UHGV virus genome: UHGV-1558314
Source: a virus
Reading direction: 5' to 3' (one strand)
DNA length: 64,000 nucleotides
Positions 1,612 to 44,488 of the stretch are shown piece by piece (positions within the stretch are counted from its first letter, which is position 1; each line of letters opens with the position of its first letter). The position numbers and the translations under genes are program-made. The notes under the pieces are model-generated. The model saw only the letters and a list, made by a program, of their open reading frames with translations. It did not search any database and was not told where the DNA came from.

Positions 1612-4600
1612 TTAGCCACGAATCAAGTCAACCAAGCGTTGCTGTTCAGGAGTCAATGACGACTTTCCACTGCCATCAACGTTTTCGTTAACGAAACCGA
1701 CTGGCTGCTTAGTCGAATATGACTTGATTGCAGCCCAGTTACGTGAACGATAGAATGCTGCGACATCTGACTCATTTACGAAAGTGCGAACTGCTGCCTG
1801 AGTAGCAATCAATGACTTCTGTTCAGGAGTCAAGCTTTCATAAATGTACTTGTATGCTGTTGGCATGTGCTTCAGATACAATGGCGTATGGTCAATTGGC
1901 TGCAGATTCTCATCCAAGACTGCCACACCTGCAGCATCATAGCGAGTTGCAAGCTGCTTTGTTTGACGACGCAATGCAGCAATTTCATGCTTGATGTTTG
2001 TCAAGCATTCATCTGTTGCTTGCGCGCCAAGATATGTGCGAAGCATATCAGACAGCATCTTCTGATTTGCGTCAGTCAAATCACCTGCGACTTCGATGCC
2101 AGTCAGCTGGTCATCCTTACTGATGACTACAGAAATTGTAGAGCCATCACGCTCAACTGTGCGGAAGTCAAAGTCATCATATGACTTATCCTTAAGAACA
2201 GCTTCACGAATATTGTCATCTACGCCTTCATTGACCATGCTCATGCATTCCTCAACATCTACGTCAAGTCCAAGCTCTTCTGCAGTTTCAGCAATCTTTT
2301 CTGCAAGTTGAGCTTTGTTTTCAACTTTGTCGAGGTCTGCTGCATCTGATACAGCATCGACAAGTTCATCTGCCTGTGCACGAGTAATCGTTGAAGCATC
2401 AACAAGGCCATCAATGATTTGCTCTACATCTGCAGGCGTCGGCTTATTGTCTTCTGTAGCTTCATTGATAAACTTAGCAGTCTTTGGCTTGTAGCTAAGC
2501 TTGCCCTCATTAACCATCTCATCCTGCAATTGTGCAGCGATGTATGCAATCAGCAATGACTTGTTGGCTTCAAGTTCATCGACTGCTTCAGCAGACTTTT
2601 GAGCTTTGATGAGTTCATCGTAAGCTGCTGCAACTTTGTCATCCATCGTAGACTTGTCAGGGTCAATGTTTTTGATGCATGTCTTGACAATGTCATCCTG
2701 ATAGAACTTGTCAATGATTGACTTGTCAGTGTCAGAGTACGTTGCATACAGCTTGTCAGCAACAATTGACTCATTGACAATCTTGCCAGGCTCAGATGCA
2801 GGAACAAGAGTCCACTTACCATCAACTTCTGCAACAATGCCTGATGTCGATTCACCATAAGTGACTGTCAGACGAGTACCAGCTTCATTGTTATCAATTG
2901 TGTTGACGACTGCTTCGAATTCATTGCCATCTGCATCATAGATTTTGATGTTGTCACCGACAGCAGCTTCATCTACTGGTGCTTCGAAGAACTCTTTGAC
3001 AAAGTTCTGAACATCAACGGGCAGACTGTCATATGGCTGTGATGCATAGTACTCTGAGTCAGCGTCAAGGTAGTTCTTTGACAGCAGCCAAGTTTTTCGA
3101 GCAGCAACATCTGCAGCATTCCAAGCATCGACTGACTCATCGCAGTCATCAACAAGTGCAAGATACTCAGGGTCTTTCTTGTCATCAAAACGAAGAGTAA
3201 ACTTTTGCTCGGGCTTGCCAGCAGGCCAAACTTCGACTTCAATTTTTGTAGTGCCTGCAACATTTTTGACTGCGCCTACAACAATCTTGTCGCCTTTGTT
3301 GATGCCATTAGACATGTCGTATGGTGCTTCAATAGATTCATCTGTCGACTGTGCTCGAATTGCAGCTGCAATAGCGTTACGAGATTCATTGTCAAACATC
3401 TCCCATGTAGCATTTGCAGCATCTTCTACGCCAATCTTGTCTTTGCCAATCTGCTCAATTAACTGATTGCGGTCAGCTACTGAAGCATTGTACCACCAGT
3501 CTGCTGCAGGGTCAGAAGCTTCATCAAGCGCTTTGACAGTTTCATATCGACCGTCATACAGCATGTACTTATCACCTTCTTTGATGGCTACAGACTCCTT
3601 GCCATTGTACTTGAATGACACTTTGTCTTCATTGAAGCCAGTCAATTCAGCTGTGATTTTGTCACCGTTCTTGTCATAAACTTCGACAGTTTGTGCTTCA
3701 TCAATGTTCAAGTGCTTCTTGAGTGCATCTACAAGTTCTTTGCCAAGTGCATCTTCATTGTCATGAGCATGTTGGAAGCAATCTTCATCTGACTTATCAG
3801 GCTGAACAGCTTTCAATGCTGTGGCACGATTGAGCATTGACATTGTGCCCCAGATTGATACGAAGCTTTTGCCCTCATTGTCTTGTGCTTTGGCTTCGTC
3901 AATTGCATCAATGTCTTTCTCAAGCATTGCATGATGAGCAATGTCGATGCCAGCCCATTTCGTCTTTGCATTATATGGCAAACCAATATGCTTCGACAAA
4001 ATTGACTGACGCTGGTCATCTGTGAATGAATCCCAAGCTTCGCCAAGTGTTGCATGCTTTGCTTCATCAGCAGCAAATTCAGCTTCAATCTTGAGTTTGT
4101 GGTCCTTGTCAATCAGTTGCCACTTGGCATTTGGACGATAAAACTCAGACAATGACAGCTTGTCAAGAATGACTTTGCGTTCGTCATCTGACAATTCGTC
4201 CCACTTGTTGTCAGCAGATTCATCGATGTTGACGAGTTCTTTCTCAATGAGATTCTTGTCAAGCATTGCATCAATGATTGGCTGCTGGGCTTCTGCTGGA
4301 ATGTCTTTGAACGACTTAATTGCAATGACAGCGTCTTTGTCATCAACTTTAGCAGCTTCAACAATTTCTGTCTTCACTTCATCAGTCAAAGCGCCCCAAG
4401 CAGCATCGAGATAATCAAAGTTGAGAGCTTCATCACATTCAACAATGCCATACTGCTTTGCAATGTCATTGTGCTTGTCAAGATTGCTGTCGAGTTCAGC
4501 TTCAATTGCTGCTTTGATGTCATCAATTGACTTATCTTCAACTTCAAACTCAAGAGCTTTTGCAAATTCAGTCAATGCTGCATCATCAAGCTTGCTAATG

Positions 4601-5562
4601 TCATAAGGCTTAGCATCTTCATTTGTGAAGTCAATGCCAAGCAAAGACATTGCTTGTTTTTTGTTTTCTTCTGAGAGTGCATCGAATGCAGTTGCAAGAC
4701 CGACATCGGTATAGTCACACCCAACTTCGTCAAGCAATGCTTCGACTTTCTGGATGTTTTCTACACCAACTTCATTAGCATCAGCATTGTTGTATGCCTC
4801 AATAAAACGTGATTGGTTTGTCATGGTAGTGAAATCTTCTATTGATTCGTTTATGAGTTGCTGTTTGAGTGCATCCAATGATGCTGAGCCAATCAATGCA
4901 TCAGGGAATAGCTTCTGCAACATGCCTGTACGTGCAAGCTCAATCAATTGGAGCATCAATGAGTTTGGCGAGTCTTCGTCATCTACAGATTCACAAATGA
5001 GAGTGTCTTTTGATTCATTAACTGAACCGACAAGATTGAACTCTGCTTCAGGAAATGACGGCTCGCATACTAAATCGTATGTAATCAACTTTAGTAGAGT
5101 CGTTGCACCTGTAGTAGGATTAACTATACCAAGAGCTCGACTTGATACAAACAATGGTGAGCCTGCAGCCACAACTGCCCATGCAATACGACCTGCTGGC
5201 GTATCAAGAATAGTAATCCAGCCTTCAAATCGTTGCTTATCAGGATTCCATTCAATACTGTCAATGCGGTGTGATACATTCCCATACTTCACAGTACGTC
5301 GCTTAACATGCTCAAGCTCGCCAAATAGACGCTTAGCTTTGATTGCTGATTGCAATGTTTGTACTTGCGCAAAATAATTTTCGAAATTGTATGTTCGACC
5401 ATTACGATTACGCTCGCCAATAGTTGCATATGTACCGAACAATCTACCAAGCGCGCCACTTGGCACATGTTCATCTACAGCTTCAGCAACAAATTGACAA
5501 TCCTGGCGGCTTTCTATAATAAGCTGCGCAGGCTTGCCTTTGTATGTTATTGGTTTTGCCAT
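1612..5562 (-). CDS. Prohead protease (T4 gp21-like N-terminal domain) fused to long acidic coiled-coil scaffold-like region, 1316 aa
   Basis: N-terminal ~170 aa carry motifs matching recalled T4 gp21 (NRNGRTY, GELEHV vs GELNHP, FVSSRALG vs GVSSRGLG); remainder is strongly acidic (D/E-rich) and low complexity. ATG start, TAA stop verified. Confidence 0.6.
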   Translation of the reverse strand: MAKPITYKGKPAQLIIESRQDCQFVAEAVDEHVPSGALGRLFGTYATIGERNRNGRTYNFENYFAQVQTLQSAIKAKRLFGELEHVKRRTVKYGNVSHRIDSIEWNPDKQRFEGWITILDTPAGRIAWAVVAAGSPLFVSSRALGIVNPTTGATTLLKLITYDLVCEPSFPEAEFNLVGSVNESKDTLICESVDDEDSPNSLMLQLIELARTGMLQKLFPDALIGSASLDALKQQLINESIEDFTTMTNQSRFIEAYNNADANEVGVENIQKVEALLDEVGCDYTDVGLATAFDALSEENKKQAMSLLGIDFTNEDAKPYDISKLDDAALTEFAKALEFEVEDKSIDDIKAAIEAELDSNLDKHNDIAKQYGIVECDEALNFDYLDAAWGALTDEVKTEIVEAAKVDDKDAVIAIKSFKDIPAEAQQPIIDAMLDKNLIEKELVNIDESADNKWDELSDDERKVILDKLSLSEFYRPNAKWQLIDKDHKLKIEAEFAADEAKHATLGEAWDSFTDDQRQSILSKHIGLPYNAKTKWAGIDIAHHAMLEKDIDAIDEAKAQDNEGKSFVSIWGTMSMLNRATALKAVQPDKSDEDCFQHAHDNEDALGKELVDALKKHLNIDEAQTVEVYDKNGDKITAELTGFNEDKVSFKYNGKESVAIKEGDKYMLYDGRYETVKALDEASDPAADWWYNASVADRNQLIEQIGKDKIGVEDAANATWEMFDNESRNAIAAAIRAQSTDESIEAPYDMSNGINKGDKIVVGAVKNVAGTTKIEVEVWPAGKPEQKFTLRFDDKKDPEYLALVDDCDESVDAWNAADVAARKTWLLSKNYLDADSEYYASQPYDSLPVDVQNFVKEFFEAPVDEAAVGDNIKIYDADGNEFEAVVNTIDNNEAGTRLTVTYGESTSGIVAEVDGKWTLVPASEPGKIVNESIVADKLYATYSDTDKSIIDKFYQDDIVKTCIKNIDPDKSTMDDKVAAAYDELIKAQKSAEAVDELEANKSLLIAYIAAQLQDEMVNEGKLSYKPKTAKFINEATEDNKPTPADVEQIIDGLVDASTITRAQADELVDAVSDAADLDKVENKAQLAEKIAETAEELGLDVDVEECMSMVNEGVDDNIREAVLKDKSYDDFDFRTVERDGSTISVVISKDDQLTGIEVAGDLTDANQKMLSDMLRTYLGAQATDECLTNIKHEIAALRRQTKQLATRYDAAGVAVLDENLQPIDHTPLYLKHMPTAYKYIYESLTPEQKSLIATQAAVRTFVNESDVAAFYRSRNWAAIKSYSTKQPVGFVNENVDGSGKSSLTPEQQRLVDLIRG

Positions 5563-9053: not shown

Positions 9054-10172
9054 TCATAGTAATGATGCTTGTAAAATGTCTATAATGTGCTCATCAGTTT
9101 CACATAAATCTGTATCACTTATTATGCAATATGCAGACAATTCAGTAGATGCATTAACATATGCAGTCATTGCAGCAGCTTTTGCTATGACTATATCATC
9201 ATGCAGCCATTTAGCAGGCTTTATTTCAACAACAATTTGCGCGTTATTAAAATGCACAACAAAATCCGCGATATATACATGTGTAGCACTATTGAACACA
9301 TACTTACACCTTGCAGTTTCTATTGAATAGTGTAACTTATTGCGTTCACAAAAGTGTATAAATTTGCGTTCATTGTTTGAACGAAACGACGCTTTAGCTG
9401 ATAAACAGTATTTTGCAGTTTGAACATAGCCTCTCATGCAGTTCATAAATGGCTGCAATGACATTATGTCTCGACCATTTAACAATGCTCTATGCTGTGC
9501 TTCTGCACGTCTACGTTTAACTTCTGGTTTAGCATCTGTAATTTTGCGAGTAGCACGTATACGTTCTTTAACACCAGGTCGAGCCATGATTGCTTTTGCA
9601 GAAGCACTTCGATGCGCATGTGTTTCAGGCCTTGCGTTAGCAATTAGCATCCCATGCAATTGAGTGTCTTTAACTTCTTGACGCTGCATTGCTATTCGAG
9701 TGCTCTGTGAAATCTTTTGCCTAACTGCAGGATTTGACATTGCACGTTTTGCGCGTTCTGACGCCTTTACACGTAGTTCTGTATTATTTGCATACATGGC
9801 ACGTTGAGTATTACTAATTTTGGTGCCAATGCGTTGTTTATATTCTGCATCTGCAAAGTATTTTGCATTTCTGCATGCATGACTGCAAACATCGCCGTCA
9901 CCATAGCCACGTGTTACACACCACCATGTTAATTGCTTGCCACATATAGAACATGTTGGGATATCTGAGTCATCTTTAATTTCACATAGATATTTGTCAT
10001 ACCATTGCTTCAATGAATAGCCTACAATAGGTTCAGCCTTTCTACTAAAATACGTGCTAAATATCCATGTATCAAGTTCAGGCACGTATAACTGAAACTT
10101 TGTACGTGTTATTTGCTTAACAAATTTGTCCCAATTCTTAGCGGCATTGCGCTTAGCGTCTTCAGCAGTCAT
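9054..10172 (-). CDS. Homing-endonuclease-like protein with basic repeats and C-terminal PD-(D/E)XK-like nuclease motif
   Basis: C-terminal IADFVVHFNNAQIVVEIKP fits D...E-x-K; central lysine/arginine-rich repeat region; CxxC...CxxxC cluster near N-terminus. Confidence 0.45.
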   Translation of the reverse strand: MTAEDAKRNAAKNWDKFVKQITRTKFQLYVPELDTWIFSTYFSRKAEPIVGYSLKQWYDKYLCEIKDDSDIPTCSICGKQLTWWCVTRGYGDGDVCSHACRNAKYFADAEYKQRIGTKISNTQRAMYANNTELRVKASERAKRAMSNPAVRQKISQSTRIAMQRQEVKDTQLHGMLIANARPETHAHRSASAKAIMARPGVKERIRATRKITDAKPEVKRRRAEAQHRALLNGRDIMSLQPFMNCMRGYVQTAKYCLSAKASFRSNNERKFIHFCERNKLHYSIETARCKYVFNSATHVYIADFVVHFNNAQIVVEIKPAKWLHDDIVIAKAAAMTAYVNASTELSAYCIISDTDLCETDEHIIDILQASLL

Positions 10173-13856: not shown

Positions 13857-14480
13857 TTACGCTTTGTTGATTTCAGATGGCATTCTGAACTTGATGTCAT
13901 TGTACACAAATGTCAATGTGAATGTCATCACGTTCTGGTCTACACGAGTTTTGTCATATGTGAGTTCAGAAATTGCAGAAAACACGACATCAATGAAGTC
14001 GATGCCAAACAATGGTTTCTTTGCACCACCATATGTTGCTACAAATCTGCAAGGCTGAAAGTAGATAGTTTCACGTTTATCATTAGCGTACACAAACAGC
14101 GACTCCAAGCAACAAAAATAATTGAGCCCACCATTCGTCAATCTGCATGTCACTTGGATTCGCTTATCAAGTGCTTGATGAATTGTTTTGCTGCCCTTAT
14201 GAAACTGTGTAATCGACTTCTTCATGCCGCTGTCATCAAGAACTTTATTGACATTTTGAGTGACAATGGGCATTGATATGCCCATCAATGACACAGACTG
14301 AATTGAATCATGCAACAAGTCATTGATGTCATAAATGATTTGTGTTGGTTGTTGCACAAACACTTTATTGTATGTCTCAGCAATGTCTTGCGGAATCAAA
14401 TCAATTGGCAAGTCAAAGCGAAACTGGTCAGAACGTGTATCGAGAATGAGCATATTTTTGATAATTTGTTTATGTACCAT
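13857..14480 (-). CDS. Hypothetical protein (207 aa)
   Basis: Intact ORF; no recognisable motifs. Confidence 0.4.
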   Translation of the reverse strand: MVHKQIIKNMLILDTRSDQFRFDLPIDLIPQDIAETYNKVFVQQPTQIIYDINDLLHDSIQSVSLMGISMPIVTQNVNKVLDDSGMKKSITQFHKGSKTIHQALDKRIQVTCRLTNGGLNYFCCLESLFVYANDKRETIYFQPCRFVATYGGAKKPLFGIDFIDVVFSAISELTYDKTRVDQNVMTFTLTFVYNDIKFRMPSEINKA

Positions 14481-15736
14481 TAACTGTCATACGACCAGTG
14501 ACCACAGTCATACACTGGCACAAATCCAGTGTCAAGCATTTCTTGCTCATTAAAGTCATCATCAAGCAAGTGTTCACCCGATTTTGTATTAACCCAGTGC
14601 TTCTTAATTGTGCATTCATCAACCGCAAAGGGATTAAGTACATTGTCAGTACAGTCAATGAACGCATCATTCAAATGCGCTTCAATGATATGAAGCACAA
14701 TTTCTTGGTCGTGCCAATCAAATATCATGAGTGGCGTGTAGCCACATGCAATTGCAAGTTGTTGCTTCCACCAATGATAGTTTGGCTATTTTGCTTCTGC
14801 AGCATTTCGTTTAAAGCCATACACGCTATTATGAGTATGCGTCGGGTTAACGTCAATTAGCAGATTGCCATAATACAGGTCATATGACGTTATGCCAACA
14901 CCATGTTCAAACTCAAAATGCACACCAAGATGTTCTTCAATGTATGATTGCCACCATCTGTTTGGCGCAGATATGATTTGCCCATTTGCTTGCATACATT
15001 TATTTGTCATGCAAAACCATGGCACACCGTAACGTTCCATACAGGTTTTTGAAATTGCAGCAAGCCATTCATCTTTGTCTCTATGCGGCCATGCATAACC
15101 ATAACGCAGACGGCATGTTTGTTGAGCTTTAGCAACGATTGGCGCTAAACGTTCACCGTATATTTCACGTTTAGTTGCGATGGCTTTGCGTGGATTAGTC
15201 CATCCAGCATCACCCCATCGCTCAAGCTTCGTTTGCTGAGATTTTTCAACAATCAGTTCAAGATTCTCACCATATTTTTGACGACGAGTTTGCATTGCTG
15301 CAACATAATCTGTAATGCATCTATGGCCATACAAACGTTCTTTTGTCGCACATTGAACATCTACTGGACCTTGTGGATAGCCATAGCGTTCCATATTCGT
15401 TTGACGAATATGTGCTTTATCGCCATATGAACTGCCGTAGCGTGCAACTTTAGTGGCAATTGTTTGCTTGATGTTGCCTGCTTTAGAACCATAACGAGCT
15501 TCTTTAGTTGCTACGCATTTTTGTTTGACTTCTGCTCTGTTCCAATTATGCTCAACGCCATGTTTACGAAGATGGCCAATTTTCATGTTGTACACGTTTT
15601 TGATATGACCATGAGATGTCTTACGTGGTGCATATCGTACAAATGGTGTTTCTGCAAGCAACTTATCTCGTTCAGCTTCAAGCTCTTTAATTCGAGCTTC
15701 AAGAGCTTCACCAGTCAAAGGCTCTACATGTTTCAT
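14480..15736 (-). pseudogene. Homing-endonuclease-like repeat protein paralog interrupted by a single in-frame TAG
   Basis: ORFs 14786..15736 and 14480..14728 are in the same frame, separated by an in-frame TAG (plus-strand cta at 14786-14788). The combined product aligns along its length with the intact paralog 22976..24175 (shared N-terminal coiled coil, xRYG repeats, C-terminal FDW...YDCGH). Confidence 0.55.
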
Positions 15737-16221
15737 TCGTGTTTGCCAGTTTGAAATAACGAATCAATTGGGATGTGAATACCAGGTTTGGATTGAATGT
15801 TCCATCCGCGCGCCAAACCATTAAGTACGCAGCTCGTAAGGTAAGAAAACGCGTTTTGAGTTACTGTTGGGTCAAACATTTGCCACTTTGACGCCAAAAT
15901 TAGCATGGCTTCTGCTGCGACATCTGCTTGCAAGTCTTTGTCTCTGTAGTATAAACGTCTCTGCACATGTTTGATAAGCAACTCAAACATGTGTATAAGT
16001 TTATCTGACAGCTGCCCAGATACTTTGCATGCGCATATTTCTGCACAAAGTTCTTTGTTGTTAATGTAATAGTTTGATGGCTGACCACGTTTCTTTGTGT
16101 TTGCTGCTTCTTCACGAAGTTGGTCTTCAAGCTGTGTCAACATGTCATCATCTGACACATATTGAATATGCTTATCTTCTGGCAGTTTAGATTCTATTGG
16201 TTGTAAGTTTTGCAGTGGCAT
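15733..16221 (-). CDS. T4 gp55-like late sigma factor
   Basis: NYYINNKEL and FDPTVTQNAFSYLTSCVLN resemble recalled gp55 (NYVNNKEL; FDETKYKNPHAYITQACFN). Start placed at ATG 16219-16221 downstream of promoter box; stop overlaps start of 14480..15736 (ATGA). Confidence 0.5.
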   Translation of the reverse strand: MPLQNLQPIESKLPEDKHIQYVSDDDMLTQLEDQLREEAANTKKRGQPSNYYINNKELCAEICACKVSGQLSDKLIHMFELLIKHVQRRLYYRDKDLQADVAAEAMLILASKWQMFDPTVTQNAFSYLTSCVLNGLARGWNIQSKPGIHIPIDSLFQTGKHE

Positions 16222-16250
16222 AACAGTGAGCATTAAAATTCCTATATAAA

Positions 16251-16262
16251 TTGTACAACATG
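16251..16262 (-). promoter_or_regulatory. TTGTACAA promoter box upstream of gp55-like gene
   Basis: ttgtacaaca at 16251-16260, about 34 nt upstream of ATG 16221. Confidence 0.4.
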
Positions 16263-16287
16263 CAAAATGTTTTTGCACCATTTTGAT

Positions 16288-16356
16288 ACAACATGCATTG
16301 CATATTTGCAATGATGCAAAGTACGATGTACACAACATGCATTGCATATTTGCAAT
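16288..16356. repeat. Two direct copies of a 25-bp element
   Basis: acaacatgcattgcatatttgcaat at 16288-16312 and 16332-16356, between a terminator and the promoter box. Confidence 0.6.
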
Positions 16357-16357
16357 C

Positions 16358-16392
16358 ATAAAAAAGCTCAGCCAATTACGGCTGAGCTTTCA
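16358..16392 (-). terminator. Putative intrinsic terminator after 16438..17727
   Basis: Stem aagctcagcc/ggctgagctt (16364-16389) preceded on plus strand by A5, giving a T-run on minus strand. Confidence 0.5.
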
Positions 16393-19369: not shown

Positions 19370-20662
19370 CTACAACAATGACGGCACTCGTTGAGTTTCA
19401 AGTGGGTCGCTGACATTGATGCCTGTGTATGCAACAAGTCGTTGTATTGGGCCAAGTACGAGTTTTTCGAACATGAGTCGTTTGTTCATTGGCGGCACAT
19501 CTGGCATATACTTCGGTGTCGGCATTTCGCCTGGTGCAAAGCCAAATGCATCGCAATATTGACGAGAGCCAATTGGGATATTTGACAAATCTGACTTTGC
19601 TCTGTCAACAAAGTAGTAGAACACTCGACCGCCTTCAATCAATGGGTATCGTGTTTCCAATCCATGAGCTTTTACAAGACGATTATGCCAACAACATGCC
19701 CTGTACTGAGGCAGTACACCTTTTGCTAACTGCCATTCGCCATCATAGCTTAACACATAGTCATGATACTTGTTTGCATTGACATATGCACAAAGTTTTT
19801 CCAAGTCTTGCTCAGCTTCAAAGCGTTTCCATAATTTCTGTATGAGCTTTGGATATGTCGCAGAAGTCAATTCACCTCTGAACATTTTTTTGAATGCATA
19901 ATCAAGCATTTGCCTAACAAGCATTGATGAGCCTGTTTGAATAAGTTCGATGCCCTTACCTTGAATATGCTCAGTAGGGTCTTCAAATACTCGACCATCT
20001 ACATATATTTGAGACTTCAAATACTTTTTCTTTTGGGCAAATAATGCAGTATCAGAAATCGTCTCAAGGTCGAACATTAGCACAGAATCTCCATGACGCT
20101 TTGCAAGGTCATTTGCATATGACCTATTGAACAGTTCTTCCATACGATATTTGAATATCGCAAGAATCAAGTCATACCAATTTTTGCCTGTGTAACCAAT
20201 TGACTTAACTGTCGGCTCAAAGTGAATGTACAAAGAGTCTGTGTCAATATACAGCACTTTGTCTTCATAGGGTTCTTGCTTTGGCGACACAGACAAATCA
20301 AAATTGCCTTTCAATTTGGGGTCATTGCGCAGCTTTTCATGCAATTCATAATCACACCACCATTTATTGTTGAGATAGTCATTTGCTACTCGTTCGCCAA
20401 AGTGAATGAAGTTACGCCCTTCTGCAGTAATTGATTCTGCAACTGCCATATTGAAGAAGTGATAGAATCGATTACTTGTCGCACCATAAATACTGTTCCT
20501 TAGTGTTTTGAACGTCACCTGCAATGACGCATGTTTAAGCGACTCTTGTATTGCAAAGCCACGTAATTCAAATAGACGCTCAGTAGACAACTGACTCAAA
20601 TCGCCAGTTAAATCTACTCCATCTATTTCAATTTTTGACATGTCTATCTGAGCTTCTGCCAT
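19370..20662 (-). CDS. Family-B DNA polymerase, C-terminal fragment (motifs B and C)
   Basis: KTLRNSIYG (motif B, Kx3NSxYG) and YIDTDSLY (motif C, YxDTDS). ATG start, TAG stop. Confidence 0.8.
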   Translation of the reverse strand: MAEAQIDMSKIEIDGVDLTGDLSQLSTERLFELRGFAIQESLKHASLQVTFKTLRNSIYGATSNRFYHFFNMAVAESITAEGRNFIHFGERVANDYLNNKWWCDYELHEKLRNDPKLKGNFDLSVSPKQEPYEDKVLYIDTDSLYIHFEPTVKSIGYTGKNWYDLILAIFKYRMEELFNRSYANDLAKRHGDSVLMFDLETISDTALFAQKKKYLKSQIYVDGRVFEDPTEHIQGKGIELIQTGSSMLVRQMLDYAFKKMFRGELTSATYPKLIQKLWKRFEAEQDLEKLCAYVNANKYHDYVLSYDGEWQLAKGVLPQYRACCWHNRLVKAHGLETRYPLIEGGRVFYYFVDRAKSDLSNIPIGSRQYCDAFGFAPGEMPTPKYMPDVPPMNKRLMFEKLVLGPIQRLVAYTGINVSDPLETQRVPSLL

Positions 20663-20684: not shown

Positions 20685-20724
20685 TTGTACAACACACATT
20701 GCAATTTTGCAATATGTGTGTTAA
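20685..20724 (-). promoter_or_regulatory. Promoter box plus adjacent palindrome upstream of polymerase C-terminal gene
   Basis: ttgtacaaca at 20685-20694 followed by near-palindrome acacacattgcaa..ttgcaatatgtgtgtt. Confidence 0.35.
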
Positions 20725-20801: not shown

Positions 20802-21629
20802 TTAGAATGGCAGGTCACCATCGTCACCTGCAGCGCCAAATTCAGCTGCAATGTCATATACCAACGTCATTGCGATTCGCAAATCGCGCTTCTTAGACTT
20901 CAGGCGCATGATATCATGACCAGAATTGTTTGTGATGACTGAACATTCAAACTCTTCATTGCCATCAATAAATGACAACATTGATTTGTGAATTGTGATT
21001 GGCGATAAATCAGATGGGTAATTTGCATCAATCACATATTCAAAGTTGTTGTTCTTGGCAATTAGTCCTCGTTCAGTCGTACGAATCTCAATGCCGGGCA
21101 ATTCCTTATCACCAGTATTCAATGAGCCATACGATGACATGATGCCAAAGTGATTTGACGTCAAATCGAGTTTTCTTAGATTTGTTGTGCTGTCAAACAA
21201 CATTGACATATCATTGTCAGACAGCTCAAAGTAGCCAAGTGATGGCATTGAACAAACCTGATTGATTTTGAGCTGATTGTTTGAGATTACAATGAGCTCT
21301 GCAATTGTATCTGTGCCAATTTGTTTGACATAGATTTCAATCATTGCAGATGAGCCAAATGCAGCAAGTACTCGATTGTTAAACTGTGTGCCGTTGTAAA
21401 TGAGCGCCTTGACTGTGACATCTTTGAGCGTCGACTCATAATGCTCACAAATATCAAGAACATTGAGCGTCTGTGATTTTACAAAGCTGCTGTTGCCAGC
21501 ATCAGTTCTGATTCGCTGGTCATTAAGTGAAAAGCTAAGCTTGCCATCGCACTTTAATGATGATGCAAACAATGCTCGCAGCATATCAATGTTTGCATTG
21601 CGTAACGTAATTTTGTTCAAAGTTTCCAT
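20802..21629 (-). CDS. Hypothetical protein (275 aa); weak resemblance to a sliding-clamp-like processivity factor
   Basis: Sits between polymerase fragments; acidic C-terminus ending DDGDLPF. Function not supported by motifs. Confidence 0.25.
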   Translation of the reverse strand: METLNKITLRNANIDMLRALFASSLKCDGKLSFSLNDQRIRTDAGNSSFVKSQTLNVLDICEHYESTLKDVTVKALIYNGTQFNNRVLAAFGSSAMIEIYVKQIGTDTIAELIVISNNQLKINQVCSMPSLGYFELSDNDMSMLFDSTTNLRKLDLTSNHFGIMSSYGSLNTGDKELPGIEIRTTERGLIAKNNNFEYVIDANYPSDLSPITIHKSMLSFIDGNEEFECSVITNNSGHDIMRLKSKKRDLRIAMTLVYDIAAEFGAAGDDGDLPF

Positions 21630-21697: not shown

Positions 21698-22072
21698 TCA
21701 TCGATTGTCGCCTGACCCATGCAGTACGCCTCGTAATTTTCGAGACTGTAGTTTCTGAATGTTAAGCTGACAAATGTCAGTTAAGCTGTAGCCCAAATCA
21801 TGTGCAAGAGTTGCAGCATACCACATGACATCGCTAAGCTCTTTTGCGATTTCCTTGCGAATGTCTTCATTGTCAAAATCACCATTCTTGTCTCGAATGA
21901 CTTTTTTGACTTTGTCTGCAACTTCGCCTGCTTCACCCGTCAAGCCAAGCGTTGGATAGACAATTGCAGCTGATTTAGGATACACTGCGCTATCAAGTGC
22001 AGCAGTCTGATATTCATCAATGGTTGAAATACAAGTGTGGTCAATTACACCATGTTCATCTCGTTTAAGCAT
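21698..22072 (-). CDS. MazG-like nucleoside triphosphate pyrophosphohydrolase
   Basis: All-alpha NTP-PPase signature (LTGEAGEVADKVKK ... ELSDVMWYAATLAHDLG). Confidence 0.55.
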   Translation of the reverse strand: MLKRDEHGVIDHTCISTIDEYQTAALDSAVYPKSAAIVYPTLGLTGEAGEVADKVKKVIRDKNGDFDNEDIRKEIAKELSDVMWYAATLAHDLGYSLTDICQLNIQKLQSRKLRGVLHGSGDNR

Positions 22073-22073
22073 A

Positions 22074-22565
22074 TCATTTACGTTTTTGTTTGACTCTTAA
22101 TCGTTTTTGCATAAATGCTCTTGTAGCTTCACCAAAAGCCATCTCGTCTCGTTCGCCACCACAAAGCTTTGCAAGCTTATTGAATGTGTCTTGGTCAATC
22201 ATTGTGTACGTTGAGTTGTTGACCACATGCAATGCAAACTGAATCAGCGGTGCGCCTGGCTGCAAGCAGAACGGCTCTTTGCCCGCATTGTACACTGCAA
22301 GATGAATCTCGCCATGATAGTCTGAATCTACAAACTCACTTGTTTTGATGATAAGATGATTTCGTGAAATGCCCGACTTATTGTAGGCAATCAATGCATG
22401 ACAGGCAGGCACAAGTGCTTTGATGCCAGATGGAATTGCAATGCCCTCACCAGGTTGCAGCATTGTTTGCACAAAATCATTGGGTATGCAAAAGTCCCAT
22501 GCGCCAGATTCTGCTGTTGACTTAAAAGGACTTTCTACATTTCTGCATTTTGCAAAGAATAACAT
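22074..22565 (-). CDS. dUTPase / dCTP deaminase family protein
   Basis: VDSDYHGEIHLAVYNAG resembles trimeric dUTPase motif GxIDxDYRGE. Confidence 0.5.
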   Translation of the reverse strand: MLFFAKCRNVESPFKSTAESGAWDFCIPNDFVQTMLQPGEGIAIPSGIKALVPACHALIAYNKSGISRNHLIIKTSEFVDSDYHGEIHLAVYNAGKEPFCLQPGAPLIQFALHVVNNSTYTMIDQDTFNKLAKLCGGERDEMAFGEATRAFMQKRLRVKQKRK

Positions 22566-22975: not shown

Positions 22976-24175
22976 TTAACTTTTTGCATGACCACAATCA
23001 TACACCGCAACATAGCCAGCATCAATCATCTCTTGCTCATCTTGTCCGCAATCTTCAATATGTTCTTTTGTCTTCAAATGACACCAGTGTTTGCGAATTG
23101 TTGACTTGTCATCTGACAATTGCGGATTGAGTGCGAAGTCAGTTGAGTCTACTGGTTCACCTGCAAGATGCTTTCTAATGACATCAATGACAACATCAAA
23201 TGGCATCCAGTCAAACACTGTAATGCAAGTGTAGCTGTGTTTGATAGCAAGTTGTGTTTTGTTAAAATGGTTGTCATATGGTCGTTGCCAATTATGATTT
23301 GCATTGAACACAATATTTGCAAAACTACGCGTGCTATTATGAGAAATAGTTGGGTTAAGTTCAATTAGCAACTTATGCGATTTGCAAACAATGTCATATG
23401 ACAATGACGTGTTCTCAAATGTAAATTCTTGCTCAAAATGCACATCAAGGTTATCAAATAGCATGTTAAGCCTTGTGCATATTTTTGTATTGTGTGCAGA
23501 CTTTGCTTTAGATTTTGCTCTGCATTGAGGCAATTGGCATGGCCACACTACACCATGACGTGACAATGTTGTTGCACGAATTGCGTCAAGATTCGTTGAT
23601 GGATTGCCATATCGAGCTATTCGAGTTTGCCTTGCTTTGTCTATATTGCCTGGGCCTGCATTGCCCCATCGCTGCAACTTTGTTTGTCGAGCTTGTTCAT
23701 GATTGCTGTAATATGGGTCTCCATATCGTTCAAGCTTTGTTTGCTTTAACTTACTCATGTCGCCAAGCCCATTGCCATACTTAGCACGCTTTGTTTCTAT
23801 GCCTTTCTTTAGATTGCCTCGTTTGTTGCCATATTTTGCAATGTTGTGTGCATTACGTTTTTCAATGTCACCAAACCCATTGCCATATCGTGCAAATTTT
23901 GTTGCTTGCGCTTTTTCAAAATTGACTGCTAATGTGCCATAACGAGCATACTTAGTTGCTTTGCCCTTATCAACGACTTCTTTACGATGCAATGCAGCTT
24001 CAACACCATATTTTCGCAAATTTGTAATTTTTGCATTGTATCGTCGTCTAATTGTTGCATGAGTGTTGTTACGAGACCCTGTTCTGACATATTCAGTTGC
24101 AGCAAGTTCAGCATCACGTAACTGCTCAAGTTCTGCAATTCGTTGTTCAAGTTCAGCGCCTACAAGTGGTTTCAT
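22976..24175 (-). CDS. Homing-endonuclease-like protein with ~18-aa basic tandem repeats (intact paralog)
   Basis: About eight repeats of K-x-x-A-T-K-x-A-R-Y-G-N type; N-terminal coiled coil; C-terminal YDIVCKSHKLLIELNP resembles a PD-(D/E)XK-like core with N in place of K. Located between the two DNA polymerase fragments. Confidence 0.45.
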   Translation of the reverse strand: MKPLVGAELEQRIAELEQLRDAELAATEYVRTGSRNNTHATIRRRYNAKITNLRKYGVEAALHRKEVVDKGKATKYARYGTLAVNFEKAQATKFARYGNGFGDIEKRNAHNIAKYGNKRGNLKKGIETKRAKYGNGLGDMSKLKQTKLERYGDPYYSNHEQARQTKLQRWGNAGPGNIDKARQTRIARYGNPSTNLDAIRATTLSRHGVVWPCQLPQCRAKSKAKSAHNTKICTRLNMLFDNLDVHFEQEFTFENTSLSYDIVCKSHKLLIELNPTISHNSTRSFANIVFNANHNWQRPYDNHFNKTQLAIKHSYTCITVFDWMPFDVVIDVIRKHLAGEPVDSTDFALNPQLSDDKSTIRKHWCHLKTKEHIEDCGQDEQEMIDAGYVAVYDCGHAKS

Positions 24176-24183
24176 GTGTTGTT

Positions 24184-25689
24184 TTACAATTTGATTGCGC
24201 CTCTACGAGCAAGCTCTTCTTCAATCAATCGAACATGATTGTTAGAATACCAGAACTGAATTTTTTTGTGATAATTACGCTTGTCTCCAAGTTCTTCCTG
24301 TACTGCTTTGTACATGCTTTTTTCATGATTGTCATACAAGCAGTCATTAACGGACACAAAGTACTCTGGCAATGACTTGTAATGCGCAATTTCATCAGGA
24401 TTTGTCAGACGTCTGATAAAGTTATCCGGTGATACATTGCATGATTTCATTGAACTTGGATAGAGTGAATTTGCATCAACACAAACAACTTTATGAGCCC
24501 AATGGTTAAATGGTTGCTTCACAAAGCCACCTTCAAATGCATGCACAACATTTTCTGGACCGCCTTGAGCACATACGACTTTGCCACCATATTTGTTGTA
24601 CAAATATGTCATCATGACGCCCTCAGATTGCTTAACTGGGCCTTGACAGTGGTTCATATCAATGTTTGACACATTTGACAAGCCCATCACATTTGATATC
24701 AAGTCAGTTTTTGCAGCAATCATCGCATTGACCATCGTATCGACAGCATTATATGCAATGAACGTGCATGGATGATACAAATACAGCTCTTTAAGTGTAC
24801 AATCATAGGGCAGCTTACCTACACCGAACATACGATGTGCAATATAGTCAAGTCGCAATGACTCTTTTTGCCACACTGAATAGTCGTATGTGTCCATGAG
24901 CTGCATGTAGTCATCAATGTACTTGTGATATGGCATACCATTGCCCCAGACAGTTCTGCCAACTGGAGATGCCAATGCTAAATCAATATTGTGCATTGCG
25001 CATCGATTTTTGACATAGATGTTGTCGAAGCCATTGATGTTCCAGCCTGTCAATGCAGGAATGTTTTTGAAGAGCTTAGTCACCCAAAAATGCAACAATT
25101 CATGCTCATTTGCATGTTGAAAGATTTTGACAGTTGGATGTTCTTTCAAATACGCAGCAAAGCAATGTTGACCCATGTACTCTTGAATGATGCCATTGAC
25201 AAACTCAAATGCATCATCCAGTGTTGGGTTTTGTTTGCCACAGCTTTTGCGCAAATCATCATCATTCAACAAGTCAACAGTAGTCTGAATGACACAATTG
25301 CATTGTTCATCGCATGTACTTATTGCATTAATGGGCATTTCAGCTTTGTCAGGCTTTGGAAAGCCATTGCCAATTTCAGTCTCAATATCGTAAAAGTATA
25401 ACTTTGGTCTACGATAAGCAAACAATTCAACTTTGTCAGCTTCAGGCAATTCAAATAAGAATTGCAGCAAGTCAAATTGATTGAATCGTTTTGCTGTGAC
25501 TCGAGTCACAGGCAATTTGCGCCAATCTTGAATATCTGCATATTGCGGCTCTACATGGTCTGATATTTGCCATACTGGAAATTGATATGGCTGTTCACAG
25601 ACTGGGTATGTTTTGATGTCAATGCCACCTTGCTCATTAACGTATGAAACTTCAATGCCATGTGACAAATATGCTACGTCGACAATCAT
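24184..25689 (-). CDS. Family-B DNA polymerase, N-terminal fragment (3'-5' exonuclease motifs and motif A)
   Basis: Exo I FYDIETE, Exo II NINGFDNIY, Exo III YNAVD, motif A VDANSLYPS. Track start 25725 is TTG; first ATG 25687-25689 used. Confidence 0.8.
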   Translation of the reverse strand: MIVDVAYLSHGIEVSYVNEQGGIDIKTYPVCEQPYQFPVWQISDHVEPQYADIQDWRKLPVTRVTAKRFNQFDLLQFLFELPEADKVELFAYRRPKLYFYDIETEIGNGFPKPDKAEMPINAISTCDEQCNCVIQTTVDLLNDDDLRKSCGKQNPTLDDAFEFVNGIIQEYMGQHCFAAYLKEHPTVKIFQHANEHELLHFWVTKLFKNIPALTGWNINGFDNIYVKNRCAMHNIDLALASPVGRTVWGNGMPYHKYIDDYMQLMDTYDYSVWQKESLRLDYIAHRMFGVGKLPYDCTLKELYLYHPCTFIAYNAVDTMVNAMIAAKTDLISNVMGLSNVSNIDMNHCQGPVKQSEGVMMTYLYNKYGGKVVCAQGGPENVVHAFEGGFVKQPFNHWAHKVVCVDANSLYPSSMKSCNVSPDNFIRRLTNPDEIAHYKSLPEYFVSVNDCLYDNHEKSMYKAVQEELGDKRNYHKKIQFWYSNNHVRLIEEELARRGAIKL

Positions 25690-25700
25690 ATTATTATCTT

Positions 25701-26111
25701 TTAGAATAGAGATATTGTACAACAATTTGATTCAGGTTGCCATTCTACAATATGCGCATCAAAGTGTTTGTTAAGCCAATGTGCAAGTATGTGTCTATGA
25801 CAAAATGCAGATGGTCTGCACCAACATAACAATACAATGTCTCGTTCGCCTGCAAAAATCTTTATGCGATGCAGCATCAAACTTATCTGTGACAATGCAG
25901 CGTCAAGTTTTGCTGCATATTGCTCTGCATATTGTGCATTGTCAAGCAAGCCTGCTTTATGCAAACGAACAAGTGACATGTAATCAGGCATGACGTCAGT
26001 CCATGTAAAATCTGCTATGAAGCCCTTAGGCTTTGTTGCAGACACTTGAACAAGAAATGCGTTATCAGGCAGATGCCTGCATGCATAATATGAAGTCAAG
26101 ATTCTTGTCAT
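25701..26111 (-). CDS. Small protein with C-x-x-x-x-C-H-R motif (DUF488-like?)
   Basis: LLCWCRPSAFCHRHILAHWL; family assignment from memory only. Confidence 0.3.
   Translation of the reverse strand: MTRILTSYYACRHLPDNAFLVQVSATKPKGFIADFTWTDVMPDYMSLVRLHKAGLLDNAQYAEQYAAKLDAALSQISLMLHRIKIFAGERDIVLLCWCRPSAFCHRHILAHWLNKHFDAHIVEWQPESNCCTISLF
25711..25726 (-). promoter_or_regulatory. Promoter box upstream of polymerase N-terminal gene
   Basis: attgtacaaca at 25714-25724, embedded in the 3' end of the upstream gene. Confidence 0.4.
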
Positions 26112-40277: not shown

Positions 40278-41543
40278 TTACCGATATTTGATGTGCCATG
40301 GCCGCATAAATGCGCATGCATTAATGCAGTTTGCATACACATATCGAAGCATTGCAATTGCATTGCTGACATCACTTACTGCAGCAGGCTCATAATTTGC
40401 ATGGCCGCCAATCTTAGCATTCAAAGCATCACGAGTAATTGGTGCAAGACTCCCATTTCTGAGTTCAGGCCATAACTGTGCTGCAAGTGATGCATTGTTT
40501 ACAATGGCTTGCTTATGAAATATTGCATTTTCTCGTGCGTTCTTTTTGCAATTTGACTGCCATATGCCATACACAAAGTATGGCTGATGCATAACCACAC
40601 AATTGCCAGACAGCTGCAAAATTGCATGCACAAAGTCGATTGCAGTGTCTGCATCAAGACCCTTTGTTTTGCAATCATTGTAATCGATATTGTACAACTT
40701 AAGCCACTCTGCATCGAACATCTCATATGGGTCATTGATGTAAATGTGCTTGAACCATAGCAATTCTGCATCAGAAGACATCACTGCAATGTCTACTTGT
40801 GCAATACGCTGCCAGTTGTCATCAAATATGCTGCTTGGGATGCTGTCATGCTTTACGCCACTGTAGCATGTCATTGCTGCAGTGCAATGCAGCATAGGCC
40901 AAACTTGAAGTCGCTTGCAGCATTCTGCAAAAACATCTGCGCATGCATTGACATCAGCAAGGGCGTCATGAGCAGATTCAAAGTCATGACCGAACAAACC
41001 TCGATATGCATCGACAAGTTTTGCAGACCCATTGCTCAAATGCTTTGCAAAGCCTTTGTACAGAAACTTTGTGTCAATGACGGGATATTGAGTCATGAAG
41101 TTTGCAGTTTTGCAACGCTGACATTCATAATCGAGAATCGTCAAGTCATATGGTGCGTTGTGTGCAATAAGATGCGTTACACCAAAACGCTCCAAGTCAA
41201 GTCTGAACTGGTCAAGCACTTTTTGCATTGGCTCTCCATGTTCATACAACTGCGCCATAGTATGACCATGCACAGCAAGAGCTTCTGCTGGCATATCATC
41301 AAAACTGCTGTTGAATCTGCCAAGTGGCATTACAAGCATGTTGTTTCGATGCAGTTCTATAATGTTGCCCGCATAGTCAAGTCTGAAGATTTTGTATGCA
41401 AGCTGAACTACAAATGACATCTCTTGCAAATCAATGACATCTTGCTTATGCCAGTAATCGACTGCTAACCCTGTTGACTCTACATCAAACGCTGCGCATA
41501 CAAGCTCTGTGATATGCTCTTTGCTTTTATTGATATGTTCCAT
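40278..41543 (-). CDS. DnaQ-like (DEDDh) 3'-5' exonuclease with ~200-aa C-terminal extension
   Basis: Exo motifs AAFDVESTG, HNAPYDL, HDALADV. Confidence 0.6.
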   Translation of the reverse strand: MEHINKSKEHITELVCAAFDVESTGLAVDYWHKQDVIDLQEMSFVVQLAYKIFRLDYAGNIIELHRNNMLVMPLGRFNSSFDDMPAEALAVHGHTMAQLYEHGEPMQKVLDQFRLDLERFGVTHLIAHNAPYDLTILDYECQRCKTANFMTQYPVIDTKFLYKGFAKHLSNGSAKLVDAYRGLFGHDFESAHDALADVNACADVFAECCKRLQVWPMLHCTAAMTCYSGVKHDSIPSSIFDDNWQRIAQVDIAVMSSDAELLWFKHIYINDPYEMFDAEWLKLYNIDYNDCKTKGLDADTAIDFVHAILQLSGNCVVMHQPYFVYGIWQSNCKKNARENAIFHKQAIVNNASLAAQLWPELRNGSLAPITRDALNAKIGGHANYEPAAVSDVSNAIAMLRYVYANCINACAFMRPWHIKYR

Positions 41544-41545
41544 GC

Positions 41546-42178
41546 TTATAAGAATTTTTCTGCAATCAAGCCAGGTGTAAAATCAGGATGGAACTGCAGA
41601 GGCCCATTATCAATGACATTGATTTCGAGATGATTGCCATCGATGTCTATGACAGACGCTTTGTCAAAGCCTACAGGGCTATTGTAGATGTACGCATTGC
41701 CAGATTTGTCAATGACAATATCACCATGAACAAAGTATTCACGCTCAGTTACAGCAAAGCCTCCGCAAGTTGCAGTGTTGTCTGACTCTTGTTTGACATC
41801 GTAGTCAGCTTTCAATGCTTGTGCAAGCGTAATGACATCTTTGCTGTACTTTCTGCGGCCAATAGGCGTGTCAATCATATTGATGAGCGACGTAATTTTG
41901 TCTTGCGGCGACATGTTCATAGCAGCATATTGCAATGCTGACATACAATGTAGCAATTCGCATGTATCAGTTGTAATACGACAAATCTGACAAACGTCAC
42001 CAATTGCAATGTCATCAATGTTGTCGCATTTTATTGATGTCACCAATAACTTTACGTTGTCATGCATGCACGATACTACAATAGAACTGATGCTGTTATC
42101 ATAATAACGTTCAATTTTTGTCACGGTTGCAATGCGGTAATTGCTGCGCTCTATCATGCGATAATTTGTTTTATTCAT
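41546..42178 (-). CDS. Hypothetical protein
   Basis: Start set to ATG 42176-42178, overlapping upstream stop by 8 nt. Confidence 0.3.
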   Translation of the reverse strand: MNKTNYRMIERSNYRIATVTKIERYYDNSISSIVVSCMHDNVKLLVTSIKCDNIDDIAIGDVCQICRITTDTCELLHCMSALQYAAMNMSPQDKITSLINMIDTPIGRRKYSKDVITLAQALKADYDVKQESDNTATCGGFAVTEREYFVHGDIVIDKSGNAYIYNSPVGFDKASVIDIDGNHLEINVIDNGPLQFHPDFTPGLIAEKFL

Positions 42179-42392
42179 ATGTGTAAGTGTGAAGTTGTTC
42201 AAAAAGGTCTTCAATTGAGTTTGTTTCAAATGCAAACTCATCTTTTGATATGCAAGTGACCATATAAATGCCATCAATATTTACAATGCGGCAATCATGG
42301 CCATCTGGGCTGAACTTCTTGTCTTTGTACAGAATTTCAGCCATGATGAGTCGTTGGTTAAGCGTAAGTGGATTGCTATAGAATCGTTTCAT
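42171..42392 (-). CDS. Hypothetical small protein (73 aa)
   Basis: ATG start verified. Confidence 0.3.
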   Translation of the reverse strand: MKRFYSNPLTLNQRLIMAEILYKDKKFSPDGHDCRIVNIDGIYMVTCISKDEFAFETNSIEDLFEQLHTYTYE

Positions 42393-42763: not shown

Positions 42764-43822
42764 TTACTGCTTCAAGCCTGTGAACAGTTCATACTTGAAT
42801 GCAGGCCCTGCTGTGTAAGCCTCAAAGTAGAAGTCACCAATATTGATGCTTGCAATAGCGTCATCGACAGCTTTCTTGTAGCCTACACGTTCAATTGTCT
42901 GCTTATCGCATTTACGCCAATATGTGCTGTGCATCATAAGCGTGGGTGATGCAGCATAGTCTACTGCAAGCTGTTGTTTTGCAGTGTCAATGTGATGTTC
43001 ATAGATGTGCACATCATTGCCAGTCCAAATGAACTCTCTTGCCGCACAGTTAGTCAATGTTGCAACAATATGTGTAAGCAATGCATATGATGCGATATTG
43101 ATGGGCACACCAAGACACATGTCACAACTACGCTGAGTAAGCGCACAGTCAAGCCACATGCTTGGTACTTGAGCAGAATCAAGGCATTCTGCAGAACAAT
43201 CATGCACAAGCATGCTATCATTAGCAATCTGAATTCGTTCTTCAAGAGTCATTGGCTGACAATTGAACTGAAACAGCATATGACATGGCGGCAATGCCAT
43301 CTGAGACATTTGTGCAGGATTCCATGCAGACACGACTTTGTAGCGGCCAGTTGGATTGATGACAATGTCTTTAATGCAAGTTGCAAGTTGGTCATATCCA
43401 CTGTCATTGAAGTTGCGCCACTGATACCCATAGATAGGTCCGCAATCACCATACTCAGGCTTGCTGAATTTTGTGTTATGCAGTTCTGTGCACCAAGTTT
43501 CAAAGTCGACATCTTCACCTGGATGCAGTTTACGCCAATGACGATATGCATCCTGATGCCAGAACTTTGTAATACCAAGCGTGTCAAGCGTTTTTACATT
43601 TGTATCACCTGACATAAACCACAGAAGTTCTCCAATGACACCCTTGACAAACATTCTCTTGGATGTCAACAGTGGAAAGCCTTTACGCAAATCAAATCGC
43701 ATTGATTCTACAAACAATGACTTTGTGCGAGGCATGTTTTCACGAGCAGGCTCCTTAAATCTGCCATGTTCAATAACATTGTTAAGTACTCTCAAGTACT
43801 CAGTGTCGTGTTTGATATTCAT
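42764..43822 (-). CDS. thyA: Thymidylate synthase (ThyA family, canonical dUMP-type)
   Basis: ELLWFMSGDTN, LPPCHMLFQF (catalytic Cys), GVPINIASYALL with Asn at the base-specifying position. Confidence 0.75.
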   Translation of the reverse strand: MNIKHDTEYLRVLNNVIEHGRFKEPARENMPRTKSLFVESMRFDLRKGFPLLTSKRMFVKGVIGELLWFMSGDTNVKTLDTLGITKFWHQDAYRHWRKLHPGEDVDFETWCTELHNTKFSKPEYGDCGPIYGYQWRNFNDSGYDQLATCIKDIVINPTGRYKVVSAWNPAQMSQMALPPCHMLFQFNCQPMTLEERIQIANDSMLVHDCSAECLDSAQVPSMWLDCALTQRSCDMCLGVPINIASYALLTHIVATLTNCAAREFIWTGNDVHIYEHHIDTAKQQLAVDYAASPTLMMHSTYWRKCDKQTIERVGYKKAVDDAIASINIGDFYFEAYTAGPAFKYELFTGLKQ

Positions 43823-44444: not shown

Positions 44445-44488
44445 TTGTTTGAAATTAGTGAAGAGCACTTGCAGGCAGCTCAATCTCC

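Follow-up and report, generated by a model that had tools for sequence, protein, structure and literature searches.

A gp55-family minimal sigma factor gene and its recurrent promoter module in the genome of an uncultivated human-gut jumbo phage

The stretch of DNA described here comprises 64,000 nucleotides, given as one strand, of the UHGV virus genome UHGV-1558314, and will be referred to as the window. It contains a small gene, designated here the sigma gene, which codes for a minimal sigma factor. The gene product, sigma, is intact and distantly related to gp55, the late sigma factor of phage T4. An intrinsic terminator and three tandem copies of a promoter module, which recurs before replication genes of the window, precede the sigma gene, and its stop codon is overlapped by the start of an interrupted homing-endonuclease-like gene of the DUF7487 family. 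These features are listed in Table 1, together with two genes that bear on the possible mode of late transcription. For comparison, loci from related genomes were used, namely L001-L006, L007, which carries a sigma orthologue of 72% identity, L009, a locus of 12 kilobases (kb) from phage MA9V-2, and L010, a 174.6-kb IMG/VR contig with 94-97% identity to the window.

Table 1. Coordinates of the sigma locus and of the genes discussed with it (positions in the window)
Feature	Position	Strand	Remarks
DUF7487 homing-endonuclease-like gene	14480..15736	minus	Pfam DUF7487, E=1.3e-10; PHROG 3339; between the sigma gene and a tail-tube-like gene
gp55-family minimal sigma gene	16221->15733	minus	Open reading frame of 162 amino acids, MPLQNLQ...GKHE; assigned by PHROG 234, profile and fold
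TATATA hexamer	16243..16248	minus	Just downstream of the proximal promoter module; possible late-type -10-like element or transcription start region
Proximal canonical promoter module	16250..16277	minus	TGCAAAA-N11-GTTGTACAAT, read as nTGCAA-N17-TACAAT; ends 28 nucleotides before the ATG
Middle promoter module	16283..16310	minus	TGCAAAT-N11-GTTGTATCAA; inside the second 25-base-pair repeat
Distal promoter module	16327..16354	minus	TGCAAAT-N11-GTTGTGTACA, -10-like part degenerate; inside the first 25-base-pair repeat; missing in L010 and L007
Intrinsic terminator	16391-16362	minus	13-pair stem with 6 G-C pairs, then a T run; ends the unit of the upstream gene of 429 amino acids
Split family-B DNA polymerase, C-terminal half	19370..20662	minus	Ends in ...VPSLL, compared with ...IDSLF in the sigma tail
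Candidate sliding clamp	20802..21629	minus	275 amino acids, acidic; immediately upstream of the polymerase palm/thumb gene; identified with Foldseek

The sigma factor and its relation to T4 gp55

The open reading frame (ORF) of the sigma gene had been noted in a preliminary description made from the sequence alone; it is present as claimed, and its strand could be clarified as minus. In relatives, gene callers chose an alternative in-frame ATG, which corresponds to 16233, four codons further upstream. In the L007 orthologue, the ATG at 16221 is conserved and a stop codon sits just before it.

Sigma was matched by PHROG 234, annotated as late sigma transcription factor, with an E-value of 1.2e-8. 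In a BLASTP comparison with T4 gp55, residues 47-138 of sigma were collinear with residues 5-108 of gp55 over 104 residues, with 19% identity and a pairwise E-value of 0.004. The two blocks in which a likeness to gp55 had been noted earlier, NYYINNKEL for YNYVNNKEL and NAFSYLTS for NPHAYITQ, both lie inside this alignment. When 1.84 billion representative proteins were searched exhaustively with HMMER, 466 relatives of sigma were identified, mostly of 110-140 amino acids, and a family profile was built from the alignment of 61 of them. This profile found T4 gp55 (PDB 7D7C chain F) with an E-value of 2.6e-12, ranking above sigma fragments of the extracytoplasmic function type, and alignment of the family to the T4 gp55 sequence with hhalign gave a probability of 97.6% and an E-value of 3e-12. 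The gp55 homology that had been proposed was thus recovered in profile searches by PHROG 234, by the match to 7D7C chain F and by hhalign. The family profile was needed for this purpose, since a search of the PDB sequences with sigma as single sequence returned noise only; a word-indexed protein search with sigma found two close relatives only.

The AlphaFold (AF2) model of sigma has a mean predicted local distance difference test (pLDDT) score of 87 and shows four helices in the core, with one further helix at the N-terminus and a short one at the C-terminus. The top match of the model among PDB structures in Foldseek was again 7D7C chain F, with a root-mean-square deviation of 1.8 Å over 99 columns and a probability of 1.00, and most of the other high-ranking matches were sigma region-2 domains or sigma-containing complexes. 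With its 162 amino acids, and judged by Pfam and by the AF2 model, sigma is a single-domain protein without regions 3 and 4. It is composed of one sigma-region-2-like helical domain, an N-terminal extension of 46 residues and a short conserved C-terminal tail, and is related to the Pfam family Sigma70_r2 at the level of the fold only.

For T4 gp55, cryo-electron microscopy revealed that N13, L54, R57, F86, H95, Y97 and T99 form pockets for the flipped bases of the -10-like element and are needed for recognition (PMC7892883). In the hhalign alignment these residues map to N55, V86, R89, F116, F125, Y127 and T129 of sigma, so that five of the seven are identical, one is conservatively replaced and one is changed (H95 to F). 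Between the sigma gene and its L007 orthologue, 61 synonymous and 45 non-synonymous codon differences were counted at 72% identity, and on this comparison the gene is judged to be under purifying selection. The assignment to the gp55 family is supported by the sequence profile, by the fold and by the functional residues.

Nearly all transcription units of the window are carried by the minus strand. T4-type genes were identified for the portal, the gp2 DNA-end protector, the gp4 head-completion protein and a prohead protease fusion, and the window further codes for a split family-B DNA polymerase, an SbcCD-like fusion, a helicase, two thymidylate-synthase-like proteins, dCMP deaminase, dUTPase, MazG and glycosyltransferase-like proteins. 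A near-DNA search of the window against phage genomes gave no match. By their sigma and portal proteins, the nearest phages are Chryseobacterium phages MA9V-1 and MA9V-2, Sphingomonas phage PAU, Tenacibaculum phages PTm1 and pT24, the Prevotella Lak phages and further huge phages from metagenomes, this group being closer than the T4-like phages proper. The close relatives of the window stem from human gut metagenomes. The genome is that of an uncultivated human-gut phage, placed among the T4-related jumbo phages (MA9V, PAU, PTm1 and Lak), in which the RNA polymerase of the host is redirected by a minimal sigma factor. A Shine-Dalgarno-like sequence precedes only 1 of the 60 window genes, the leaders being rich in A, and this scarcity, the origin from the gut and the identity of the nearest phages jointly suggest a Bacteroidota-like host. 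A scan of the entire window with Rfam identified no RNA family, and a search for tRNA genes in the window found none.

The upstream region and the recurrent promoter module

The terminator, the two direct repeats of 25 base pairs (bp) and the TTGTACAA box reported upstream of the sigma gene were all found. The terminator is a hairpin with a T run that is present at the equivalent place in L001, L007, L010 and Chryseobacterium phage MA9V-2; in MA9V-2, also, the terminator is followed by a promoter before the sigma gene. The repeats extend over 33 nucleotides each (16288-16320 and 16332-16364) with 91% identity, their central 25 nucleotides being exact, and a third, partial copy lies at 16254-16277. 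The TTGTACAA box (16251-16258) is located within the 10-mer GTTGTACAAT. The upstream region folds more than shuffled sequence (z=-2.9), which is mainly due to the terminator and to palindromes in the repeats. These elements had been taken to suggest regulated expression. As elements they stand, but the repeats and the box are more aptly regarded as three copies of a recurrent promoter module behind a terminator than as a regulatory device of a special kind.

The three modules before the sigma gene are arranged in tandem, 44 and 33 nucleotides apart. Three copies are present in the window and in L001-L006, and one copy in L010 and L007. L010 keeps the proximal module alone, directly after the terminator, and the single module of L007 has diverged to TGCATAT-N11-GTAGTACTTT. 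Because L010, with its 94-97% identity to the window, and L007 have one module each, the triplication is recent and dispensable.

The module has the bipartite form TGCAAAW-N11-GTTGTA(CAAT), for which 12 exact matches were found in the window compared to 0.06 expected; for the 10-mer GTTGTACAAT, there are 10 exact matches compared to 0.38 expected. All of these are on the coding strand. When copies with one mismatch are included, 16 modules are counted; TGCAA is invariant in all 16, and in GTTGT the positions 1, 2, 4 and 5 (G, T, G and T) are likewise found in 16 of 16, with T at position 3 in 15 of them. In the reading nTGCAA-N17-TACAAT, the layout of the module is that of a sigma-70-type promoter, and the proximal module usually ends 21-58 nucleotides before the start codon. 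Modules precede the sigma gene, both polymerase halves, the clamp candidate (a variant at 21691-21664), the helicase, SbcCD, a zinc-finger protein and several small genes. Before the polymerase exonuclease half, the 10-mer at 25723 has a weak upstream element only. In the window, the genes for the portal, protease, baseplate, adaptor and tail-tube-like proteins had no module in front of them. The module is a promoter class of replication and nucleotide-metabolism genes.

Tandem arrangement is not restricted to the sigma gene. Pairs with the same GTTGTATCAA variant were identified before SbcCD (53428 and 53398) and at 57205 and 57175, the variant at 53428 and 57205 preceding the canonical module. 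The second pair opens an element at 57205-57040 (minus strand), in which the modules are followed after about 60 nucleotides by a strong terminator-like hairpin (GATGGCTGCTGC...GCAGCAGCCATC and a T run), with no obvious ORF between; it could represent a small RNA or an attenuated leader. Two exact copies of GTTGTACAAT lie on the minus strand in predicted coding sequence, one at 40689-40698 in the gene for an RNase T-like exonuclease of 421 amino acids and one at 25714-25723 where the gene preceding the polymerase exonuclease half ends. They could act as internal promoters; alternatively, the starts of the genes may have been set wrongly. Pieces of 5' leaders are also shared: CATATATTCGAACATAAT is present in two leaders of unrelated genes (29657-29640 and 46415-46398, minus strand), and AATCTAAATCTCATTTAGA stands before both the helicase and SbcCD genes (46405-46388 and 53360-53340, minus strand). 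The regions before the genes resemble mosaics put together from cassettes that can be reused.

Late transcription and the explanations weighed

Taken as a whole, the observations are probably best explained by a gp55-type sigma factor which is made together with the replication genes and switches on the late structural genes. Sigma would dock on the core of the host RNA polymerase, replacing domain 2 of the host sigma factor, and would recognise an A/T-rich -10-like element by flipping bases of the non-template strand into pockets like those of gp55; in this way the structural, late genes would be switched on. The sigma gene itself would not be a late gene, as the terminator would insulate it from the structural genes upstream and its promoter is of the replication class (TGCAAAW-N11-GTTGTACAAT). 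Because this promoter class is common to the replication genes, sigma would accumulate with the replication proteins, as the product of T4 gene 55 does; such an arrangement would be expected if late transcription depends on sigma made beforehand. The tandem triplication probably raises or prolongs sigma expression, while being dispensable.

For T4, the short hydrophobic and acidic C-terminus of gp55 was identified as the clamp-binding epitope, which is interchangeable with that of the DNA polymerase (PMC2988020). The sigma tail GIHIPIDSLFQ does not vary in orthologues with identities as low as 72% (IHIPIDSLFQTGKHE being invariant in the close relatives), and was modelled as a short helix beyond a linker of low confidence. 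A tail of the form h-S-h-(D/S)-x-h is found family-wide; one member carries VPISSLDFLTSDF (...SSLDFLTSDF), compared to SLDFLYEAND in T4. The tail of sigma (IHIPIDSLFQ) probably tethers the protein to the sliding clamp candidate of the phage, and such a tether would couple late transcription to replication. For the model of the clamp candidate, whose N-terminal half is the confident part, all of the 50 PDB matches listed in Foldseek, out of 756 with E<=10, were PCNA, beta-clamp or 9-1-1 chains. A sequence-profile match was not obtained for this protein, no relation to T4 gp45 was detected with hhalign, and profile searching of the PDB returned weak leucine-rich-repeat noise only. Judged from its model, it may be a very divergent phage clamp. 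Two other ORFs considered as clamp, 43800-44483 and 41546-42277, had no PHROG, Pfam, NCBIfam or PDB-sequence match. A clamp motif common to the C-termini of polymerase and sigma was rejected as well, since [IV]-x-S-L-[FL] covers four positions only and is too weak to count.

The preliminary description had drawn from the gp55 likeness a T4-type mode of late transcription. A clamp-like protein and a conserved tail are in line with this part of the proposal; it is weakened in that no gp33 was found in the window and that the T4 late promoter TATAAATA is not used. The full T4-type late mechanism is plausible but unproven. In the search for a late-promoter consensus upstream of structural genes, TATAAATA was found once in the window (27794), before a non-structural gene. 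A different candidate was obtained from alternating (AT)3 hexamers, which are rare in the window; non-coding DNA, amounting to 11% of the window, contains 14 of their 26 clusters. Boxes with the pattern (C/T)ATATAT(A/C) stand 25-80 nucleotides before the protease fusion gene (5613) and the structural operon at 38230, likewise before the genes starting at 1435 and 49385, and, in L001 as well as in the diverged L007, before the tail-tube-like gene. From this small sample, (C/T)ATATAT(A/C) is a candidate late box; similar A/T runs also follow several of the module promoters. TATATA as such is about five-fold under-represented in the window, with 9 sites, mostly intergenic, compared to roughly 46 expected from an estimate based on base composition.

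Several findings weigh against a gp55-type late factor as described above. On the side of the protein, the identity to gp55 in BLASTP is only 19%, the sole Pfam signal (Sigma70_r2, PF04542) reaches 17.1 bits and stays below the gathering threshold of 24, and about 60 residues which in T4 lie between region 2 and the clamp epitope, including conserved segment 3, are missing from sigma. In the clamp candidate, the mean pLDDT is 57.5 and only residues 1-128 are confidently modelled. On the side of transcription, gp33 was not found by PHROG or Pfam in any ORF of the 64-kb window, nor among the small ORFs, the single TATAAATA does not precede a structural gene, and the TATATA-type late motif rests on few sites. 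Finally, the promoter module agrees with the E. coli -35 consensus at only three of six positions and was missed by a generic sigma-70 scan, and it does not match the Bacteroidota promoter consensus either, although the host is seemingly Bacteroidota-like by its Shine-Dalgarno scarcity. The Bacteroidota promoter pattern (TTTG-N19-21-TAnnTTTG) is not enriched in the non-coding DNA of the window.

The poor fit of the module to host promoters raises the alternative that sigma reads GTTGTACAAT itself, as a replication-phase or middle sigma factor with positive feedback, TGCAAAW being read by a separate sigma-4-like partner. The 10-mer is near-invariant, as strict as the T4 late box and stricter than usual host promoters; it stands before the sigma gene itself, and the module resembles neither the E. 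coli -35 element nor the Bacteroidota TTTG and TAnnTTTG elements, even though the host seems to be Shine-Dalgarno-free. However, the gp55-dependent promoters of T4 serve structural genes, none of which has the module here, and conservation extends to the pocket residues responsible for flipping adenines at -12, -9 and -8, so that a box of A and T only fits better than GTTGTACAAT. A purely autocatalytic promoter would also need another way to start. This alternative is considered unlikely. In a wider form, the phage might run both its replication-phase and its late programme on own specificity factors, with sigma reading GTTGTACAAT and the tandem copies dialling its dosage, which follows from the same combination of a seemingly Shine-Dalgarno-free host and a module unlike E. 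coli and Bacteroidota promoters; this is regarded as quite unlikely. If it were true, the presence of one or three box copies in genomes that are 95% identical would be a fast evolutionary dial for the dosage of sigma.

The two 25-bp repeats, in turn, could be chiefly operators for a dimeric regulator that times or holds back sigma synthesis, instead of additional promoters. Each repeat contains ATTGCA-N4-TGCAAT, the imperfect palindrome ATTGCAAATATGCAAT, and both upstream copies have a degenerate -10-like part (TATCAA and TGTACA). A near-perfect ATTGCAA-AA-TTGCAAT overlaps the module before the polymerase gene (20698-20713), weaker copies are present at 5645 and 54806, and at up to three mismatches the palindrome has 15 matches compared to 7.4 expected. 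Against operators stands the exact module architecture and spacing of the repeats (TGCAAAT-N11-GTTGT), as well as the tandem pairs with the GTTGTATCAA variant before SbcCD and at 57205, which have no palindrome. L010 and L007 lack the repeats and yet retain the gene and a single module, and no candidate regulator was identified. An operator role is considered improbable. It would be still more surprising if sigma were a relic consisting of region 2 only, or an RNA polymerase inhibitor that acts as a decoy for the beta-prime clamp helices and serves in host shut-off without promoter specificity. The small size of sigma, its single domain and the missing segment 3 of gp55 would agree with such a role, but five of the seven DNA-pocket residues are conserved, purifying selection appears to be strong, and the family is widespread in T4-related jumbo phages without another late specificity factor, so that this explanation is regarded as highly improbable. 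A gp55-type factor made with the replication genes is preferred for sigma.

Mobile genes around the locus and comparison with known systems

The DUF7487 gene downstream had been described as a homing-endonuclease-like pseudogene overlapping the sigma stop codon, and both statements agree with the present analysis. Its ORF starts at 15736 and shares ATGA with the end of the sigma gene. A single in-frame TAG (14786-14788) interrupts an otherwise full-length gene, which consists of an ORF of 316 amino acids and an ORF of 82 amino acids in one frame, separated by the TAG and 19 sense codons. Both parts align with intact paralogues. In L010 the gene is intact with CAG at this position, and L001-L007 are without the gene, the tail-tube-like gene following there about 50 nucleotides after the sigma gene. 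On these grounds, the DUF7487 gene is taken to be a lineage-specific mobile gene that was inserted and inactivated recently. Recoding of TAG as glutamine was considered as an explanation for the interruption and rejected as a general feature, since TAG ends 9 of the 60 ORFs, including the polymerase gene; one of the nine is the interrupted DUF7487 gene itself, and the other ORFs, read with the standard code, are long.

Genes of the DUF7487 family are found at differing places in genomes of 94-97% identity. In the window they lie at 9054-10172, 14480-15736 and 22976-24175, of which the last copy is missing in L001 and L010, and L001 contains at 4546-5505 a DUF7487 gene before the C-terminal polymerase half that is not present in the window. 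The family-B polymerase is split into an exonuclease half (24184-25725) and the palm/thumb half (19370-20662), about 3.5 kb apart, which enclose a DUF7487 gene and the genes for dUTPase, MazG and the clamp-like protein; the polymerase is divided likewise in L001 and MA9V-2. The prohead protease domain forms the first approximately 240 residues of a fusion protein with a total of 1316 amino acids (1612-5562). Two thymidylate-synthase-like genes, dCMP deaminase, dUTPase, MazG and two to three glycosyltransferase-like genes were identified (42764-43822, 47048-47929, 60717-61442, 22074-22565, 21698-22072 and 53763-56158). From this set of genes, the DNA of the phage may be expected to contain a pyrimidine that is modified and possibly glycosylated.

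Two sequences are gained that can be tested, the replication-phase consensus TGCAAAW-N11-GTTGTACAAT and the candidate late box, and both could help to define transcription units when related metagenomic genomes are annotated. The polymorphism in promoter copy number and the turnover of DUF7487 genes represent very recent changes in regulation and mobile elements around a core regulator. Knowledge of gp55-type transcription is unchanged by these findings.

Compared to T4 gp55, sigma has a region-2-like helical domain that is collinear over about 100 residues, and both proteins have a C-terminal hydrophobic tail beyond a flexible linker. Both genes lie amid T4-type core genes and, for the sigma gene as judged from its promoter class, are expressed with replication rather than late genes. 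In contrast to the 185 amino acids of gp55, sigma has 162, with the additional N-terminal extension, the loss of conserved segment 3 and the change of H95 to F as further differences. Neither TATAAATA as the promoter nor a gp33 partner was found for the window system.

T4 MotA-box middle promoters and the PeSL cassettes are early/middle or mobile promoter cassettes. The module resembles T4 early and middle promoters in being a conserved phage element which is reused before many replication genes, and in having an element near -31 in place of the canonical -35. It also resembles the PeSL and MotA cassettes in that its copies share flanking pieces of the 5' untranslated region, which suggests that the module was spread by recombination. 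The sequence of the module, however, is unrelated to the MotA box, and no homologue of MotA or AsiA was found in the window. To our knowledge, a T4 counterpart of the tandem triplication before the sigma gene has not been described.

The best matches of sigma are the sigma factors of the group-2 jumbo phages, such as MA9V2_198 (annotated as sigma-70 region 2), PAU gp112 and those of PTm1/pT24 and Lak, with 30-38% identity. MA9V-2 has the same order of C-terminal polymerase half, hypothetical protein and sigma gene, but lacks a TGCAAAW-N11-GTTGTA module before its sigma gene in the L009 locus. Most members of this group have 110-140 amino acids and are without the N-terminal extension of the window sigma. 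Minimal sigma factors, together with a gp33 orthologue, have been described for every group-2 jumbo phage, Lak and PTm1 among them (Iyer et al. 2021, PMC7824862). Sigma is therefore another, ordinary member of a protein family that was already known from this phage group.

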